From a virus (taxonomy: Duplodnaviria; Heunggongvirae; Uroviricota; Caudoviricetes): a stretch of DNA of 28,227 nucleotides. The stretch is taken from the IMG/VR virus record IMGVR_UViG_3300045988_125232, positions 1 to 28,227 of that record, one strand, 5' to 3'. A program made the translations under genes and the position numbers. Below are positions 273 to 15,350 of the stretch, piece by piece. Under the pieces are notes generated by a model. The model was not told the DNA's origin. It searched no databases and saw only the letters and a program-made list of their open reading frames with translations. The stretch's first letter is position 1. Each line of letters begins with the position of its first letter.

Positions 273-396
273 TGTGCCAGTTTTGTGTCGCACGAGGATT
301 GTTACGATACTTCATCTTCATGCATGTGCCATTAACTTGAGGCGTGTGAATGCGGTAATGGCTATATAAAACAGTTAGTTAAATGTGGTTCTACTA

Positions 397-3463: not shown

Positions 3464-4060
3464 TTAATGATTGTCGTAATAATTAATTGGCTCATCATTT
3501 TTTTGGTCTGGCATAGTTATGGACCACTTTATATTCTTTAGGCTGTTATGTTTTTTATTGACCTTAAGCTCTCTCTTTGCTTCAGAGATAATATCGTCTA
3601 GTAATACTTTTAATTTATCAAGTCTTGACTTGTGGGCATCTATCAACTCTATACTATCAAACTCCCATTGTATAAATAGATTTTCTTCATTTTCAATGAA
3701 TGAACGGATTTTATCCCCACACTCTTCTGTTAAGAATAATGAAGATAGCTCACCTATTCTACTGAGTTTTTCAAGCTCATTAGAGAAAGATTTGCTAAGG
3801 ATTTCATTTTCTTCTTTTGATTTGTAACTAAAGTAGGTTGGGAATTGTGAAGCGTGATGTAACTCATGTTTATACCAATAGTCAGCTGTGTTTTTTAGAA
3901 GATAAACACAGTCAACTAATTGCGTATACAAATCTATTCTTTTGTCCCACCATTTTTCTTTATAATAACGGCCGAGTGCATATCGCGCAGTTAAGTAAGC
4001 TGCGATTGAGCCTGTAACAAGTCCGATAATTACCTTTGATATAAGGTCATGCCAATCCAT
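3464..4060 (-). CDS. Membrane-anchored protein of unknown function (moron; candidate lysogen-expressed exclusion or abortive-infection factor)
   Basis: 198-aa ORF with one N-terminal hydrophobic helix (VIIGLVTGSIAAYLTA), then a charged, Lys/Glu-rich helical body. Visibly AT-rich compared with flanking phage genes, with its own AT-rich upstream region and its own terminator. Confidence 0.7.
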   Translation of the reverse strand: MDWHDLISKVIIGLVTGSIAAYLTARYALGRYYKEKWWDKRIDLYTQLVDCVYLLKNTADYWYKHELHHASQFPTYFSYKSKEENEILSKSFSNELEKLSRIGELSSLFLTEECGDKIRSFIENEENLFIQWEFDSIELIDAHKSRLDKLKVLLDDIISEAKRELKVNKKHNSLKNIKWSITMPDQKNDEPINYYDNH

Positions 4061-6291: not shown

Positions 6292-6471
6292 TTGCGACAA
6301 GTTAACCGCTGGTTCAAAGATCACTACGGAGTACCCGTCAGAGTCATTCGTTGGGAGCCGGAAACACAACGGGTTATCTACCTCCGCGAAGACTATGAGC
6401 ATGAGTGCTTCAGCCCGCTCGAACAGTTTCGTCGTAAATTCAGGGAAATAGAGGTCGGTCATGAGCACTAA
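6292..6471 (+). CDS. Small protein (59 aa, TTG start) translationally coupled to the replication gene
   Basis: AAGGAG ribosome-binding site 8 nt upstream of TTG; its stop overlaps the ATG of the next gene. The product (…[35 protein letters not shown]…) is more protein-like than the serine-rich tail of the overlapping 112-aa ORF. Confidence 0.35.
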
Positions 6472-7402
6472 ATTAACCGGCTATGTATGGGATGGTTGCG
6501 CTGCGTCAGGCATGAAATTATCCAGCGTGGCAATTATGGCCCGCCTGGCTGATTTCAGTAATGACGAAGGTGTGTGCTGGCCATCAATTGAAACCATTGC
6601 CCGTCAGATTGGCGCGGGGATGAGTACCGTCAGAACGGCTATCGCACGGCTGGAAGCAGAAGGCTGGTTAACGCGTAAGGCGCGTCGCCAGGGTAACCGC
6701 AATGCGTCGAATGTTTATCAGCTTAACGTTGCGAAGCTTCAGGCAGCGGCATTTTCTCAACTGTCAGATTCTGACCCGTCAAAATCTGACGCATCAAAAT
6801 CTGACCCGTCAAAATTTGATGCGTCGAAATCTGGCAAAAAAGCGGGTTTTCACCCGTCAGAATCTGGCGGGGATCCGTCAGTAAAATCAAAACATGATCC
6901 GTCAGATAAAAAAACTTCTCGTCCGGACGCTTCGCAACCGGACACGCAGACGGCTGAACAGGAGTTTTTAACTCGCCATCCTGATGCGGTTGTATTCAGC
7001 CCTAAAAAGCGCCAGTGGGGAACGCAGGATGATTTGACCTGCGCACAGTGGCTCTGGAAAAAAATCATCGCCCTGTACGAGCAGGCCGCCGAATGTGACG
7101 GCGAGGTGGTTCGTCCCAAAGAACCGAACTGGACAGCCTGGGCAAACGAAATTCGCCTGATGTGTGTGCAGGATGGTCGTACTCACAAACAAATCTGCGA
7201 GATGTACAGCCGCGTCAGCCGCGATCCGTTCTGGTGCCGTAACGTGCTCAGCCCGTCGAAGCTGCGGGAAAAATGGGATGAGCTTTCCCTGCGCTTATCG
7301 CCGTCCGTCAGCACGTACACCGAAAAACGCGAAGACCCGTACTTCAAAGCCAGTTACGACAACGTGGACTACAGCCAGATCCCGGCAGGATTCAGGGGGT
7401 GA
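6461..7402 (+). CDS. Replication initiator (O-like, N-terminal winged-helix DNA-binding domain)
   Basis: 313-aa ORF with an N-terminal HTH typical of phage/plasmid replication initiators (…WPSIETIARQIGAGMSTVRTAIARLEAEGWL…); a repeat-encoded low-complexity linker (DPSKSDASKSDPSKFDASKS) overlies DNA iterons. Confidence 0.8.
   Translation: MSTKLTGYVWDGCAASGMKLSSVAIMARLADFSNDEGVCWPSIETIARQIGAGMSTVRTAIARLEAEGWLTRKARRQGNRNASNVYQLNVAKLQAAAFSQLSDSDPSKSDASKSDPSKFDASKSGKKAGFHPSESGGDPSVKSKHDPSDKKTSRPDASQPDTQTAEQEFLTRHPDAVVFSPKKRQWGTQDDLTCAQWLWKKIIALYEQAAECDGEVVRPKEPNWTAWANEIRLMCVQDGRTHKQICEMYSRVSRDPFWCRNVLSPSKLREKWDELSLRLSPSVSTYTEKREDPYFKASYDNVDYSQIPAGFRG
6761..6845. repeat. Iteron array inside the replication gene (putative origin)
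   Basis: At least four tandem 15-bp units (TCTGACCCGTCAAAA, TCTGACGCATCAAAA, TCTGACCCGTCAAAA, TTTGATGCGTCGAAA), with further CCGTCAG repeats and A-rich tracts out to about 6905. Confidence 0.6.
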
Positions 7403-11082: not shown

Positions 11083-11835
11083 ATGAACCTTGAAGCCTTA
11101 CCGAAATATTACTCCCCGAAATCTCCAAAACTGAGCGATGACGCACCGGCGACAGGCTCTGGTGGTTTAACGATTACGGATGTGATGGCTGCGCAGGGGA
11201 TGGTGCAGTCGAAAGCACCGCTTGGGTTTGCCTTATTCCTGGCAAAAGTTGGTGTTCAGGATCCTCAGTTTGCGATTGAAGGTCTGCTCAATTACGCGAT
11301 GGCACTGGATAACCCGACATTGAATAAATTGAGTGAAGAAACCCGGCTACAGATCATTCCTTACCTTGTGAATTTTGCCTTTGCTGATTATTCCAGGTCT
11401 GCGGCAAGTAAGGCTCGCTGTGAGCATTGTGCTGGTACTGGATTTCATAATGTATTGCGCGAGGTGGTGAAACACTCCAGAAGCGGGGAATCTGTTATCA
11501 AGGAAGAGTGGGTGAAGGAACTATGTCAGCATTGTCATGGTAAGGGAGAAGTCAGCACAGCGTGCAGAGGGTGTAAGGGTAAAGGTATTGTCCTGGATGA
11601 AAAAAGGACCCGGCTTCATGGCACGCCTGTTTATAAGATTTGTGGGCGTTGCAATGGAAACCGGTTTAGCCGTTTACCAACTACACTGGCACGACGTCAT
11701 GTCCAGAAGCTGGTTCCAGACCTGACTGATTATCAGTGGTACAAAGGATATGCAGACGTAATTGATAAACTAGTAACAAAGTGCTGGCAGGAAGAAGCAT
11801 ATGCTGAAACGCAATTGAGAAAGGTGACGAGATAA
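11083..11835 (+). CDS. Q: Late-gene antitermination protein Q
   Basis: 250-aa ORF with cysteine clusters (CEHCAGTG, CQHCHGKG, CRGCKGKG, CGRCNG) typical of Q-family zinc-binding antiterminators; followed by a promoter and terminator, then the lysis genes. Confidence 0.8.
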   Translation: MNLEALPKYYSPKSPKLSDDAPATGSGGLTITDVMAAQGMVQSKAPLGFALFLAKVGVQDPQFAIEGLLNYAMALDNPTLNKLSEETRLQIIPYLVNFAFADYSRSAASKARCEHCAGTGFHNVLREVVKHSRSGESVIKEEWVKELCQHCHGKGEVSTACRGCKGKGIVLDEKRTRLHGTPVYKICGRCNGNRFSRLPTTLARRHVQKLVPDLTDYQWYKGYADVIDKLVTKCWQEEAYAETQLRKVTR

Positions 11836-11866
11836 GTGATTTTCGCCGAAGATGGCGACATGAAGC

Positions 11867-11895
11867 TTGCATTTTTCAAAAAATATGGATAAGAT
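11867..11895 (+). promoter_or_regulatory. Candidate late promoter (pR'-like)
   Basis: TTGCAT, 17-bp spacer, TAAGAT, located between Q and the downstream terminator. Confidence 0.3.
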
Positions 11896-11941
11896 TTTCT
11901 CAACGATGGGCTTTGTATGTCTGCCGTTGATAATTTTCACG

Positions 11942-11968
11942 AACCCGCTGTTGAGCGGGTTTTTATTT
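11942..11968 (+). terminator. Rho-independent terminator (tR'-like)
   Basis: Hairpin ACCCGC-TGTTGA-GCGGGT followed by TTTTTATTT, downstream of the candidate late promoter. Confidence 0.6.
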
Positions 11969-12020
11969 ACTTGTACTGAAACACATTATATAACCTCATA
12001 TCAGTTAAAAAGGAGGTTGT

Positions 12021-12356
12021 ATGATTAATGCCGTTGAGTACAGATTACCGTTAGGAAATATCTCTCCAGAGAATCTTGACGCGTTGTCAGAGCTTATCGT
12101 TAAGCATTCCGATAAATTTAATAACTATGTACTTAGTTCTATTTCTGATGATGATATTCGATATTCTTACGATTACTACAATTTTGAAATCACAGAGATA
12201 GATGAATATGGGTTTCACTTTATAGCACCATATAGCTATTATGAAGGATGCGTTGACAATAACTTCTCAGGAGAGGTTGAAGGTTATGCAGAATACGAAA
12301 TCATTGATAATGAATTAGTCTTCTCTCTTGAGGAACTACCTTGGGATGTAAAATAA
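12021..12356 (+). CDS. Highly acidic small protein of unknown function (moron downstream of Q)
   Basis: 111-aa ORF with a strong AAGGAGG ribosome-binding site. AT-rich, bracketed by the upstream terminator and its own downstream terminator; Asp/Glu residues far outnumber basic ones. Confidence 0.7.
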   Translation: MINAVEYRLPLGNISPENLDALSELIVKHSDKFNNYVLSSISDDDIRYSYDYYNFEITEIDEYGFHFIAPYSYYEGCVDNNFSGEVEGYAEYEIIDNELVFSLEELPWDVK

Positions 12357-12367
12357 ATATCAATAAT

Positions 12368-12398
12368 AAAGGCCGTAACGAACGGCCTTTATTATTAT
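12368..12398. terminator. Bidirectional-looking rho-independent terminator
   Basis: Hairpin AAAGGCCGT-AACGA-ACGGCCTTT flanked by A-run and T-run. Confidence 0.6.
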
Positions 12399-12507
12399 AA
12401 AATCATCAATGCCTGATGAATTAGAATGTAATTTTCGAATTAATAATAAATCAACATATCATTTCACGCTCCGATTTTCTGTCGGAGGCGAAACTGCGGC
12501 TATTCAT

Positions 12508-12813
12508 ATGCACGAAAAAGAGAATCTTGCTGGAGCGTTCTGGCTCGTTTTGCTGATCATCGCAGGTTGGGGCGGTCTGGTCCGCTACCTGATAGATGTG
12601 AAGCAGAGTAAAGCAACGTGGAGTTGGATAAATGCTCTGGCTCAGATAGTGGTATCAGGATTCACCGGTGTTATTGGTGGCCTGATCAGCATCGAAAGTG
12701 GATTCAGTATTTACATGATTCTCGCGACAGCGGGGATTAGTGGTGCGATGGGTTCGGTTGCACTGACGTACTTCTGGGAACGACTGACAGGGGTGAAAAA
12801 TGCAAAATCTTAA
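12508..12813 (+). CDS. Holin (three predicted transmembrane segments)
   Basis: Hydrophobic about 100-aa product immediately upstream of, and overlapping, the endolysin. The start is uncertain: the ORF extends up to an ATG at 12409, and a GGAGG lies 19 nt before the 12508 ATG. Confidence 0.6.
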   Translation: MHEKENLAGAFWLVLLIIAGWGGLVRYLIDVKQSKATWSWINALAQIVVSGFTGVIGGLISIESGFSIYMILATAGISGAMGSVALTYFWERLTGVKNAKS

Positions 12814-13276
12814 TCCTCAGCGTAAAGCTTTCCTCGATATGGTGGCATGGTCAGAAGGAACGGATAACGGGCGACAACCGACACGTAACCACGGTTATGA
12901 TATTATTGTCGGTGGTGAACTCTTCACTGATTACTCCGATCACCCTCGCAAACTTGTCACGCTAAACCCCAAACTCAAATCAACAGCTGCAGGCCGTTAT
13001 CAACTTCTTTCACGCTGGTGGGATGCTTACCGCAAGCAGCTTGGGCTGAAAGACTTCTCTCCAAAAAGCCAGGATGCTGTGGCATTGCAGCAGATTAAAG
13101 AGCGTGGCGCTTTACCGATGATTGATCGCGGCGATATTCGTCAGGCTATCGATCGTTGCAGCAATATCTGGGCTTCACTGCCGGGCGCTGGTTACGGTCA
13201 GTATGAACATAAAATCGGTGACCTGATTGCCCGATTCAAAGAGGCTGGCGGGGTGGTAAATGAAGTTGAGCTATAA
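12800..13276 (+). CDS. R: Endolysin, lambda R-type lytic transglycosylase
   Basis: 158 aa, near-collinear with lambda R as I recall it (...QRKAFLDMVAWSEGTDNGRQ...GYDIIVGGELFTDYSDHPRKLVTLNPKLKSTAAGRYQLLSRWWDAYRKQLGLKDFSPKSQDAVALQQIKERGALPMIDRGDIRQAIDRCSNIWASLPGAGYGQ...). Confidence 0.95.
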   Translation: MQNLNPQRKAFLDMVAWSEGTDNGRQPTRNHGYDIIVGGELFTDYSDHPRKLVTLNPKLKSTAAGRYQLLSRWWDAYRKQLGLKDFSPKSQDAVALQQIKERGALPMIDRGDIRQAIDRCSNIWASLPGAGYGQYEHKIGDLIARFKEAGGVVNEVEL

Positions 13277-13721
13277 GCTGGTTATCGCTGCATTCTTCGT
13301 TACTGTCATTGGTTCTTTTATCTGTTCAGCAAATTATTACCACAGCAAAGCCATCGAATACAAAAAGCAGCGTGATGAGAATGCTATGGCATTAGATTCG
13401 GCTATGGCGACTATCTCTGATATGCAGAAGCGTCAACGTGACGTAGCAGAACTTGACGCCAGATACACAAAGGAGCTTGCTGATGCTAACGCGACTATCG
13501 AAAGTCTCCGTGCTGATGTTTCTTCTGGGCGTAAGCGCCTGCAAGTCGCCGCCACCTGTGCAAAATCAACGACCAGAGCCAGCGGCATGGGCGATGGAGA
13601 AAGCCCAGGACTTACAGCAGATGCTGAACTCAATTATTACCGTCTCCGAAGTGGAATCGACAGGATAACCGCACAGGTTAACTACCTGCAGGAGTACATC
13701 AGGACGCAATGCCTTCGATGA
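13260..13721 (+). CDS. Rz: Spanin inner-membrane subunit Rz
   Basis: 153 aa with an N-terminal TM helix and coiled-coil body, similar to lambda Rz (…YKKQRDENA…DMQKRQRDVAELDARYTKELADA…); overlaps the endolysin stop. Confidence 0.9.
   Translation: MKLSYKLVIAAFFVTVIGSFICSANYYHSKAIEYKKQRDENAMALDSAMATISDMQKRQRDVAELDARYTKELADANATIESLRADVSSGRKRLQVAATCAKSTTRASGMGDGESPGLTADAELNYYRLRSGIDRITAQVNYLQEYIRTQCLR
13483..13668 (+). CDS. Rz1: Spanin outer-membrane lipoprotein Rz1 (embedded in Rz, +1 frame)
   Basis: ORF nested within Rz with a lipobox (LLGVSAC) and a proline-rich mature part (KSPPPVQNQRPEPAAW), as in lambda Rz1; the start Met is uncertain. Confidence 0.7.
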   Translation: MLTRLSKVSVLMFLLGVSACKSPPPVQNQRPEPAAWAMEKAQDLQQMLNSIITVSEVESTG

Positions 13722-13988
13722 TAGCGATAATTTTACTCATCATCCTTCACATCAGGCCCTGTAGACAGAGTGGTGATTACTTCTGGAGTGGATTCAGATT
13801 AAACATCTCATTGCTAATGTTTGAGGTTAAGCATCTGGCGCGCGGTAAGTGGTTGCGTTGAAATAAGAGCCAGTCCATTACAAATTTCATCAAGCGTTAT
13901 TGGTAAGGGTGATAATTATGAGATACCTCTTCACTAAGAGTAATCTTAAGGGTAATGTGTAACCTCACTTTTTAATACGGAGGTTGTA

Positions 13989-14213
13989 ATGTTAGAGAAT
14001 TATTTCCCTTCAGGAATAGGTGCTCAGCCTGTAACTCAAGCTCAAAAACAGAGGGTTATAGCTGTTCAAGCTGCCCTTGAATTAGTTAAGGCCTCACTTT
14101 CTTCTGCAGGTGGTCAGGCTACAAGTGCAAAATTTGAACAGGAATTAAAAGCAGCTATTGGCTTAATTGAACCATTAGCCGATGCCATTCAGAAAGCAAT
14201 CAGCAAAGAATAA
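13989..14213 (+). CDS. Small helical protein of unknown function (74 aa)
   Basis: Strong ribosome-binding site (ACGGAGGTTGTAATG) and AT-rich flanks, between the lysis cassette and the HNH/terminase genes. Confidence 0.6.
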   Translation: MLENYFPSGIGAQPVTQAQKQRVIAVQAALELVKASLSSAGGQATSAKFEQELKAAIGLIEPLADAIQKAISKE

Positions 14214-14318
14214 ATAAACCACCTGCATTTTGTTTTATTTCCCAACTAACGGGTGTAATAATCTTAATGTTTCCCGTGGATAGATAAGACAATAAGTATT
14301 CACCTTCAAGATATAAAC

Positions 14319-14345
14319 GAGCCTCGCTAATGCGAGGCTTTTTTA
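14319..14345 (+). terminator. Rho-independent terminator
   Basis: Hairpin GCCTCGC-TAAT-GCGAGGC followed by TTTTTTACG. Confidence 0.55.
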
Positions 14346-14379
14346 CGCATTGTAAGCGTGCACCAAAGAGGGGATATAA

Positions 14380-14730
14380 ATGCCACCACGAACCCCAAAA
14401 GCCTGCCGTTTTCGCGGTTGCCGCAATACCACGACTGATCCGTCAGGCTATTGCGAAAGCCACAAAAGCGAGGGCTGGAAGCAATACAAGCCAGGACAAT
14501 CCCGTCATCAGCGCGGTTATGGTTCGAAGTGGGACAGTATCCGCGCGGGTGTCCTGAAGCGTGACAAAGGCCTGTGTCAGTTATGTCTGCGTGCTGGTGT
14601 GGTGCGTGAGGCGAAAACCGTTGACCACATCATCCCTAAAGCGCATGGCGGCACTGATGCCGACTGTAATCTGCAGAGTCTGTGCTGGCCGTGTCATAAG
14701 GCGAAGACGGCCCGTGAACGACTTAAGTGA
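14380..14730 (+). CDS. HNH endonuclease (terminase-associated)
   Basis: 116 aa with an N-terminal Cys cluster and HNH core (DHIIPKAHGGTDADCNLQSLCWPCHKAK); located directly upstream of the terminase genes as in HK97-like cos phages. Confidence 0.9.
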   Translation: MPPRTPKACRFRGCRNTTTDPSGYCESHKSEGWKQYKPGQSRHQRGYGSKWDSIRAGVLKRDKGLCQLCLRAGVVREAKTVDHIIPKAHGGTDADCNLQSLCWPCHKAKTARERLK

Positions 14731-14750
14731 TAATAATTCTCAACTGTCTG

Positions 14751-14810
14751 AGGGGAGGGGCGGGTCAAATCTCTGTGACCTGACGTCTTCCGGACTGCCC
14801 GCCCCATCGT
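14751..14810. other. G-rich dyad element between HNH and terminase genes (candidate cos/packaging region)
   Basis: GAGGGGAGGGGCGGG ... CCCGCCCC inverted repeat followed by a T-run; the position matches where cos sits in HK97-like phages. The function is inferred from position only. Confidence 0.3.
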
Positions 14811-14855
14811 TTTTTTATACCCGCGAAAAATGAAATTTAACCAGGAGTGCCGCAT

Positions 14856-15350
14856 ATGGCTGGAACGGCGGGGCGTTCCGGGCGTCGCCCCAAGCCAACG
14901 GCGCGCAAGGCGCTGGCCGGAAACCCCGGCAAGCGAGCCCTGAATAAAGATGAACCTGTTTTTACGCCCATCAAAGGTGTTGAGCCACCGGAGTGGTTCG
15001 CTGAAGAAGATCTCCCTCTCGCTACGATCATGTGGCAACTGACAACTAAAGAACTCTGCGGTCAGGGCCTGCTGTGCGTGACTGACCTTGCGGTGCTTGA
15101 GCGGTGGTGCGTGGCCTACGAGTTCTGGCGACGTGCCGTGAAAAATATTGCCAGACAGGGCAACACCATCACCGGTGCAATGGGCGGTATGGTCAAAAAT
15201 CCGGAGCTGACTGCCAAAAAAGAACAGGAGTCCGAGATGAGCAGTACGGGGGCAATGCTCGGACTCGACCCCAGCAGCCGCCAGCGTCTGATTGGCCTGG
15301 CGGGGAAGAAGAAAGCCACTAACCCGTTTCTGAAAATCATCGAATCATGA
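14856..15350 (+). CDS. Terminase small subunit (P27 family)
   Basis: Basic N-terminus ([13 protein letters not shown]), size, and position immediately upstream of and overlapping the large terminase. AGGAG lies 8 nt before the ATG at 14856 (the track ORF begins at a GTG at 14847). Confidence 0.85.

Follow-up and report, generated by a model that had tools for sequence, protein, structure and literature searches.

What occupies the gap between the lysis genes and the packaging genes in the virus sequence IMGVR_UViG_3300045988_125232? This IMG/VR record of a Caudoviricetes virus, analysed over its whole 28,227 nucleotides (nt) and referred to here as the window, is an Escherichia coli lambdoid prophage; the region is 100% identical to strain ECONIH4 and ∼30 other genomes. 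Between the lysis gene Rz and an HNH endonuclease gene lies a short AT-rich stretch with a 74-amino-acid (aa) open reading frame (ORF), ORF74, which a preliminary description had taken for a self-contained moron with no assigned function. In the concept of Hendrix and Juhala for lambdoid phages, a classical moron comes with a promoter of its own and is expressed by the prophage (definition quoted in PMC2629481). Comparison with related genomes showed that the cassette is optional and that it encodes a real small protein of an unannotated family, with a masked translation start and a terminator 3′ of the gene. The explanation to which we incline is that positions 13886–14379 form an optional moron-type cassette carrying a late-transcribed, translationally throttled gene, the product of which would bind another protein. 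The features that define the locus are as follows.

13260–13721: Rz, with an embedded Rz1-like lipoprotein frame (Pfam Phage_lysis, E = 9e-38)
13722–13885, plus strand: post-Rz block, containing ORF50 and lying outside the variable cassette (homology ends at 13885)
13886–14379, plus strand: variable accessory cassette, delimited by comparison with other prophages
13989–14213, plus strand: ORF74, a predicted 74-aa soluble helical-hairpin protein (WP_000892817, "hypothetical protein"; phrog_5901 family)
14319–14345, plus strand: intrinsic terminator with an 8–9 bp GC-rich stem, loop TAAT and T6 (local fold −18.5 kcal/mol)
14380–14730: HNH endonuclease (Pfam HNH, E = 5e-15)

Homology to other prophages stops on the left at 13885 and resumes on the right exactly at the HNH start codon at 14380, so the cassette spans 13886–14379. 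The preliminary description had let it begin at 13722, which is too far upstream: 13722–13885 is a shared 164-nt post-Rz block, ∼92% identical in ∼1,900 E. coli genomes and in HK620, CUS-3, Sf101 and epsilon34. The HNH ribosome-binding site already differs among the slot variants. The remainder of the proposed layout was borne out. Rz ends at 13721 and is followed by an AT-rich gap (38.9% GC for 13722–14345 against 50.5% for the whole window) that contains a 14-codon mini-ORF, then by ORF74 behind a leader motif found elsewhere only before another ORF, ORF111, and then by a hairpin terminator ahead of the HNH gene. At 38.5% GC, the cassette has a base composition unlike that of the surrounding operon (Rz, 48.1%; HNH, 56.1%).

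The site had also been described as variable, with conservation mapping in related prophages suggested as a check. A megablast search of 5,426 complete E. coli genomes, with the interval from Rz to the small terminase gene (terS) as query, found related flanks in 3,484 genomes and the whole stretch with the ORF74 cassette in only 38 of them. Some prophages with the same Rz and HNH-terS flanks have an empty slot (26 nt from Rz1 to HNH); in others the slot is filled by a KilA-N gene, by a 74-aa ORF unrelated to ORF74, or by DUF6979 together with a 67-aa hydrophobic (small membrane) protein. The cassette is thus present in some genomes and missing from otherwise collinear relatives. None of the cultured E. 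coli phages in INPHARED carries it, and the cultured P22-like and lambdoid phages sharing the post-Rz block likewise lack ORF74. The identical cassette occurs in prophages with either GH19 or GH24 endolysins. Because the slot is filled differently or left empty in other genomes, ORF74 is to be regarded as optional cargo instead of a core lysis protein.

The post-Rz block itself contains most of a 50-aa frame, ORF50 (13709–13861; annotated in RefSeq as WP_032146275; phrog_11822), which overlaps the end of Rz. Its differences from the HK620 counterpart are distributed 7/3/3 over the three codon positions; with no third-position bias, it is probably non-coding and is doubtful as a real gene.

ORF74 and its family

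ORF74 matches phrog_5901, a family with no assigned function, across residues 1–74 (E = 8.1e-29), and the full-length profile match together with the family motifs MLxxY, RxxAVQAAL and LADAIQxA (alignments A1 and A2) makes it a member. A word-indexed search returned 14 family clusters, all from Enterobacterales. A profile search of 1.84 billion representatives gave at least 136 clusters at 50% identity (E ≤ 1e-3), and the family is almost entirely confined to Enterobacterales. Nearly all members are 60–80 aa long, with a few shorter or longer outliers, and no fusions or added domain are evident. Residue Y5 is invariant and M1, L2, R22, A28, A29, A64, D65, I67 and Q68 are nearly so; the loop that joins the two helices varies and has many Ser, Ala and Gly residues.

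Judged by its pattern of substitution, ORF74 is a genuine coding gene that evolves as a protein under purifying selection. This conclusion follows from the third-position bias in pooled close pairs (201/171/704 differences at the three codon positions) and from the 579 synonymous against 284 non-synonymous codons in the same comparison. Relative to the closest diverged homologue, in the related locus L027 (89% identical), the differences fall 6/5/23, with 18 synonymous and 8 non-synonymous codons. The preliminary description had named two outcomes that would speak against it, an untranslated ORF or a conserved accessory lysis protein present in most related phages. Neither was encountered: the frame evolves as a protein (579 versus 284), and it is missing from most related phages.

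The protein has an isoelectric point of 6.2, a net charge of 0, a grand average of hydropathy of 0.07 and no cysteine, and its sequence contains no hydrophobic or membrane segment and no lipobox. AlphaFold (AF2, 88-sequence alignment) predicts an extended N-terminal segment (residues 1–16) packed on a hairpin of helices 17–39 and 46–73, with a predicted local distance difference test score of 87.6 and a predicted TM-score of 0.71. Scans of ORF74 and 88 family members against Pfam and NCBIfam detected no family, none of the 88 matched PF24729 (Acb2_Tad1_hairpin), and a PADLOC scan of the same 88 gave only scattered single matches (E ≥ 0.0014). The best hit in a sequence-profile search of the PDB with ORF74 had E = 0.23, which is noise, and Foldseek matches to Tsi2 had E ∼2 and a TM-score of 0.38. 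A full-text literature search found no mention of the accession, the PHROG identifier or the N-terminal motif. ORF74 has no enzymatic or nucleic-acid-binding features; it would most likely act as a stoichiometric protein binder, either a host-modulating factor or a counter-defence or exclusion factor, and would not be part of the lysis or packaging machinery.

Leader, terminator and boundary hairpin

The region between the post-Rz block and ORF74 contains a compact set of signals, centred on the Shine-Dalgarno (SD) sequence and an upstream arm complementary to it (anti-SD). The minimum free energy (MFE) fold and a covariance model, R1, described below, are the sources of two of the entries.

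13875–13918, plus strand: degenerate copy of the boundary hairpin (CCATTACAAAT ... GATAATTATG; R1 match of 8.8 bits, E = 3.3, at 13877–13916)
13911–13916, plus strand: GATAAT, a hexamer resembling a −10 element and forming the 3′ arm of the boundary hairpin as well
13918–13962, plus strand: mini-ORF of 14 codons (MRYLFTKSNLKGNV), its stop codon (13960–13962) within the anti-SD 5′ arm
13935–13948, plus strand: small leader hairpin TAAGA-GTAA-TCTTA (MFE folds of the leader)
13958–13988, plus strand: anti-SD/SD helix, 5′ arm TGTAACCTC at 13958–13966 and 3′ arm GAGGTTGTA at 13980–13988
13979–13983, plus strand: SD sequence GGAGG

The sequence GGAGGTTGT(N0-2)ATG occurs at exactly two sites in the window, before ORF111 (12021) and before ORF74 (∼0.01 expected). 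The same two sites are the only ones for AACCTCA-N-GGAGGTT (0.00 expected) and, in 28 kb, for the full form AACCTCA-N-GGAGGTTGT(A)ATG. The agreement between the two leaders is no accident. In the ORF74 leader, an unpaired SD sequence has a predicted probability of 0.11 at 37°C, and the MFE fold pairs the start codon as well; the ORF111 leader, which is of the same anti-SD/SD type, has a predicted value of 0.19. Across 61 distinct leaders of the family the mean is 0.22, versus 0.37 when the upstream sequence is shuffled (Wilcoxon p = 6e-6, for leaders that are mutually related). An alignment of 27 leaders, including that of ORF111, has the 10-bp helix paired in 88.9% of cases versus 43%–52% in slid controls. 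Between 20°C and 45°C the predicted value for ORF74 stays at 0.09–0.12, and an RNA thermometer was rejected on the basis of this flat predicted melting. A conserved leader peptide was likewise rejected: the ORFs that begin at the equivalent ATG in other leaders are 3–26 codons long and unrelated, and an MCNLTF-type short ORF has no usable SD sequence. The small hairpin has comparable counterparts in other leader classes. Rfam returned nothing at gathering threshold in window positions 11800–14900.

A scan for sigma-70 consensus promoters from Rz to ORF74 (13722–13988) found none. The GATAAT hexamer at 13911–13916 has neither a matching −35 element nor a TGn alongside, and the scan did not call it. 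The "self-contained" architecture first proposed therefore holds for the terminator, which the cassette does possess, but not demonstrably for a promoter. As no promoter of its own can be recognised, ORF74 would be expressed mainly within the Q-antiterminated late transcript, which runs from 3′ of Q through the lysis genes and would read through the ORF74 terminator into the HNH and terminase genes; this reading of the late operon rests partly on established lambdoid phage biology. Weak transcription from GATAAT in the lysogen, if any, would stop at the terminator. Translation of ORF74 would be throttled by the SD helix. Because the stop codon of the mini-ORF lies inside the anti-SD arm, ribosomes that finish the mini-ORF may open the helix by translational coupling in this lineage and so relieve the masking.

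The factor-independent terminator 3′ of ORF74 has its stems at 14320–14327 and 14332–14339 and a T-run extending to 14344. Such elements are nearly universal in the family: a GC-rich hairpin followed by a T-run lies within 140 nt downstream of 60 of 63 family genes, versus none of 63 control windows. The median distance from gene to terminator is 18 nt, and the 106 nt of ORF74 are the family maximum. Terminators of the slot in the window (14320–14344), in HK620 (L002, ∼2697–2722), in L008 (∼4250) and in L006 (∼1285) have a near-identical stem, AGCCTCGC-NNNN-GCG(A/G)GGCTTTTT, and that of HK620 directly follows CATTACAAAT. Tentatively, and on the strength of a short similarity, the window resembles the HK620 arrangement with ∼430 bp (leader and ORF74) inserted between that sequence and the terminator.

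A second type of hairpin, GCCATCACCATGGG-NNNN-CCCATCGTAATGGC, is found 3′ of the terminator of many family genes (L027 1795–1826, L041 3371–3402, L046 3759–3790, L072 3733–3764 and others). The more stable fold is that of the opposite strand (for example, −14.3 versus −21.1 kcal/mol). A related sequence, GCCATTA-N21-TAATGGC, is present at window positions 328–362, just past the 3′ end of a 387-aa minus-strand ORF (457–1620) that we presume may encode an integrase. Rfam matches above the gathering score were obtained in related loci: an int-alpA RNA right after the ORF74-family cassette in L041 (3484–3548), and isrJ and STnc100 small-RNA-like elements 5′ of the lysis genes (L084 1842–1915, L046 1218–1294, L041 893–972, L066 1050–1235).

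In the accessory region that separates lysis and terminase genes, many family genes are preceded, ∼100–115 nt upstream and usually right after the preceding stop codon, by a hairpin of the form (G/C)CATTACA(G/A), a 9–10 bp variable stem, a loop, and (C/U)GATAATG(C/G). In 29 distinct copies, which were chosen for foldability and are biased to that extent, 94.7% of cells pair versus 78.2% in shuffles (0/500). Covariation is strong: double changes occur at 10 of 17 pairs, with 76 such cells versus 24.6 expected (0/500 shuffles), and one U·G pair is kept in 27 of the 29 copies. The plus strand folds far better than its complement (for example −17.2 versus −7.0 kcal/mol), which points to a structure formed in the sense orientation by RNA or a single strand. 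Applied to 455 kb of related loci, the covariance model R1 gave 44 plus-strand hits, of which 29 are the training copies, and 3 minus-strand hits. Twenty-four lie directly 5′ of family genes; two are in HK620 and one is in another E. coli prophage. The copy in P22 (L178, 40309–40349) is located between rha and orf80 and overlaps the annotated orf25. Further copies are the following.

L008 3901–3941: boundary hairpin
L046 3383–3423: boundary hairpin
L096 2646–2686 and 3405–3444: boundary hairpins
HK620 (L002) 3616–3655 and 3869–3909: boundary hairpins

The window copy folds weakly (−4 to −7 kcal/mol), and the junction with the shared post-Rz block falls inside it; 24 relatives have an intact hairpin at the corresponding position. 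In HK620 and L044, too, shared sequence ends with CATTACA; a terminator follows directly in HK620, whereas L044 has an intact hairpin. Rfam has no match at the hairpin positions in 10 related loci. Conceivable roles for the element are those of a site for RNase III or for transcript stabilisation, of a promoter component, or of a joint favoured in recombination. This covarying hairpin may be more novel than the cassette itself; it occurs in P22 and HK620 as well and could help to explain how late-operon cargo is exchanged or processed. A broader proposal, which we put forward as speculative and rather doubtful, is that ORF74-type genes are one cargo class of an undescribed modular late-operon system of enterobacterial temperate phages, in which the hairpin CAUUACA(G/A)...(C/U)GAUAAUG punctuates the cassettes, each cargo has a structured SD-masking leader, and ORF74 is a new small binder of a conserved enterobacterial protein. 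If so, the hairpin would be an RNA processing or stabilising site or a preferred joint for cassette exchange, and a binder of a conserved enterobacterial protein would account for both the phage copies and the domesticated chromosomal ones.

The degenerate hairpin also invites the view that the cassette is a decaying hitch-hiker, a functionless remnant in this prophage, and a terminator 106 nt from the stop codon instead of right after it would suit such a history. The frame is intact, however, and 100% identical in 30 or more genomes of differing strains and prophage backgrounds; the excess of synonymous over non-synonymous changes relative to L027 (18 versus 8) and the intact SD sequence, anti-SD helix and strong terminator likewise make decay very unlikely.

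Neighbourhoods and competing explanations

All 10 homologue loci inspected (Serratia phage OS31, Pantoea, Klebsiella, Dickeya, Pectobacterium and metagenomes) have the gene 3′ of holin-endolysin-spanin genes, with lysis-gene and terminase types that vary from locus to locus. A larger set of 67 non-redundant phage loci was annotated with iterated profiles. The spanin gene often ends just 80–270 nt upstream, the family gene often being the very next one, and the holin, endolysin and spanin neighbours belong to differing families across loci. Immediate neighbours include Acb2/Tad1-hairpin, Rha/ANT, DUF2560 and colicin-immunity genes, which is typical accessory-region cargo. A gene of the Acb2/Tad1-hairpin family (anti-CBASS/Thoeris sponges) stands directly 5′ of the homologue in Klebsiella prophages (L012 and L013, 3648–3884 in each), and the family is an upstream neighbour in 3 of 59 viral loci. 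Homology between ORF74 and this neighbouring protein was rejected (hhalign probability 0.4%).

In the window and in Serratia phage OS31, the gene is placed just 5′ of HNH and terS, as might be expected if ORF74 helped the HNH endonuclease and the P27-type terminase in cos cleavage. Such a packaging role is hardly credible. The large terminase gene (terL) was found downstream in only 28 of the 67 loci, family members precede unrelated terminase types (Terminase_2/Terminase_6 or Terminase_4/TerL) or none, and there are E. coli prophages with near-identical HNH-terS-terL genes and no ORF74.

Several observations weigh against the reading of ORF74 as a throttled, late-expressed binder carried as optional cargo. 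An endolysin and/or spanin gene is found upstream on the same strand in 57 of the 67 phage loci, a placement that could reflect a lysis-related role and not merely a common insertion hotspot. In species-representative genomes, 70 of 80 hits have no lysis gene within 1.5 kb, and in the inspected loci of Serratia, Hafnia, Kluyvera and Mangrovibacter the homologue is a stand-alone chromosomal ORF beside housekeeping genes, an unusual setting for a counter-defence gene. The conserved GATAAT ∼70 nt upstream could be an unrecognised promoter. Covariation in the SD helix is weak to modest (25/500 shuffles), with changes that are mostly one-sided and wobble-compatible. A peptide like that of the mini-ORF is present in only two others of 64 distinct leaders (L027 and L089); with the mini-ORF absent from most leaders, the coupling step would be lineage-specific at best. 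Fold searches gave only generic helical hairpins. The original label of moron without assigned function stands as far as optional cargo is concerned and misses both the post-lysis tie (57/67) and the stand-alone chromosomal members.

The family-wide position after the lysis genes makes a lysis cofactor the main rival. ORF74 would then be a lysis-timing factor, a cytoplasmic regulator of holin, endolysin or spanin similar to the soluble antiholin cofactor RIII of T4, and would be co-transcribed late with the lysis genes among which it is so often the next gene. We nevertheless consider this distinctly unlikely. Among E. coli prophages whose Rz is identical or very similar, 99% lack the gene, as do cultured phages of the P22-like and lambdoid groups with the post-Rz block; many unrelated cargo genes occupy the same slot. 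It has no constant lysis partner, since the adjoining holin, endolysin and spanin families are unrelated. The protein lacks a membrane segment, and orphan copies are found in chromosomes far from lysis genes.

Those chromosomal copies (loci L098–L113, L116, L119–L124, L142–L147 and L158–L177; related loci scanned with alignment A1) occur in more than 20 species of Serratia in at least two contexts, in many species of Kluyvera and Scandinavium, and in Hafnia and Mangrovibacter. Their neighbours comprise rhaM/GFA/pentapeptide genes, PnuC with a porin, a TetR regulator, the type VI secretion protein IcmF with a glutathione S-transferase, and an RTX protein with a diguanylate cyclase; the Mangrovibacter homologue directly follows the type VI secretion gene tssM/icmF. 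No conserved partner gene was found beside the chromosomal copies in the inspected loci. That many species of Serratia, Kluyvera and Scandinavium have retained them points to some advantage for the cell and speaks for a second rival: a lysogenic-conversion or host-physiology gene that, in keeping with the classical moron, would be transcribed in the lysogen from a weak promoter of its own at GATAAT (13911–13916) as far as its terminator and would give the host the same cellular function as the chromosomal homologues. The hexamer is conserved ∼60–80 nt upstream of most family genes, sometimes as TGnGATAAT, and the near-universal terminators would suit an independent transcription unit. On the other side, the window has no −35 or extended −10 element and the consensus scan was empty, the hexamer can just as well be accounted for by its place in the RNA hairpin, of which it is the invariant 3′ arm, and a sequestered SD sequence fits tightly limited expression. 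This is possible but not likely, and the optional, late-expressed binder is the reading we retain.

The other genes of the late region and its upstream end are given below.

11083–11835: Q antiterminator
11941–11962: tR′-like terminator
12021–12356: ORF111, a 111-aa AT-rich ORF
Between ORF111 and the endolysin gene: LydA-type holin
12800–13276: GH24 endolysin
3′ of HNH: P27-family small terminase, then large terminase

The ORF111 cassette (11963–12400, 32.6% GC; phrog_13663, no assigned function) is situated between Q/tR′ and the holin gene and is bracketed by terminator-like hairpins at 11941–11962 and 12361–12397. Elsewhere in the window, six tandem repeats with 15-nt spacing (TCAAAATCTGAC-like) at 6749–6871, within a 313-aa ORF (6461–7402), look like origin iterons in a replication initiator gene. 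At its left end, the sequence near 400–445 resembles the 3′ end of a tRNA, but ARAGORN found no complete tRNA there.

Taken by itself, the cassette is an ordinary element of modest weight, a moron that encodes a catalogued, uncharacterised PHROG and adds another small accessory gene to a slot of lambdoid prophages already well known as variable, although the coding, boundary and leader evidence is unusually clean. The family is large, compact, confidently folded and unannotated, and it occurs as phage cargo as well as in retained chromosomal genes; this makes it a workable candidate for a new role in host interaction or counter-defence. The masked start and upstream mini-ORF make up a regulatory device that can easily be tested.

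Comparison with known systems

Like the morons of lambdoid phages, the ORF74 cassette is additional relative to collinear relatives, lies within a late operon, is low in GC and has its own intrinsic terminator, and its slot, like moron sites, holds different cargo in different phages. Unlike a classical moron, it has no detectable consensus promoter, and its translation start is masked by RNA structure.

Leaders of the erm type and translationally coupled phage genes sequester the SD sequence and couple its release to an upstream ORF. In ORF74, too, the SD sequence and start codon are paired to an upstream arm, inside which a short ORF ends. The leader differs from the erm type in having no conserved peptide or stalling motif, and the mini-ORF is missing from most leaders of the family. 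It matches no Rfam family, and its helix is predicted not to be thermolabile.

RIII of T4 is a cytoplasmic antiholin cofactor. By analogy, ORF74 is a small, soluble, helical phage-encoded protein that would be expressed with lysis functions. No homology to RIII is evident; nearly all phages that share the same lysis genes do without ORF74, and its chromosomal homologues lie at a distance from any such genes. As for the marks of a lysis protein in general, it has neither a membrane segment nor a lipobox and is not constantly co-inherited with one lysis cassette.

The hairpin domain of Acb2/Tad1, Tsi2 and proteins of the Aqs1 type exemplify small phage or immunity proteins that form helical hairpins and work through target binding. 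ORF74 is similar to these in its size of ∼70 aa, its predicted all-helical hairpin, its lack of catalytic motifs and its location in a fast-changing accessory region. It has no sequence or profile similarity to them, so that the resemblance is one of possible action and not of membership. Membership, by full-length profile, is in phrog_5901 (WP_000892817), a catalogue entry that came without function, structure or context. To that entry the present analysis adds a predicted helical hairpin, a position after the lysis genes, chromosomal orphans and a structured leader.

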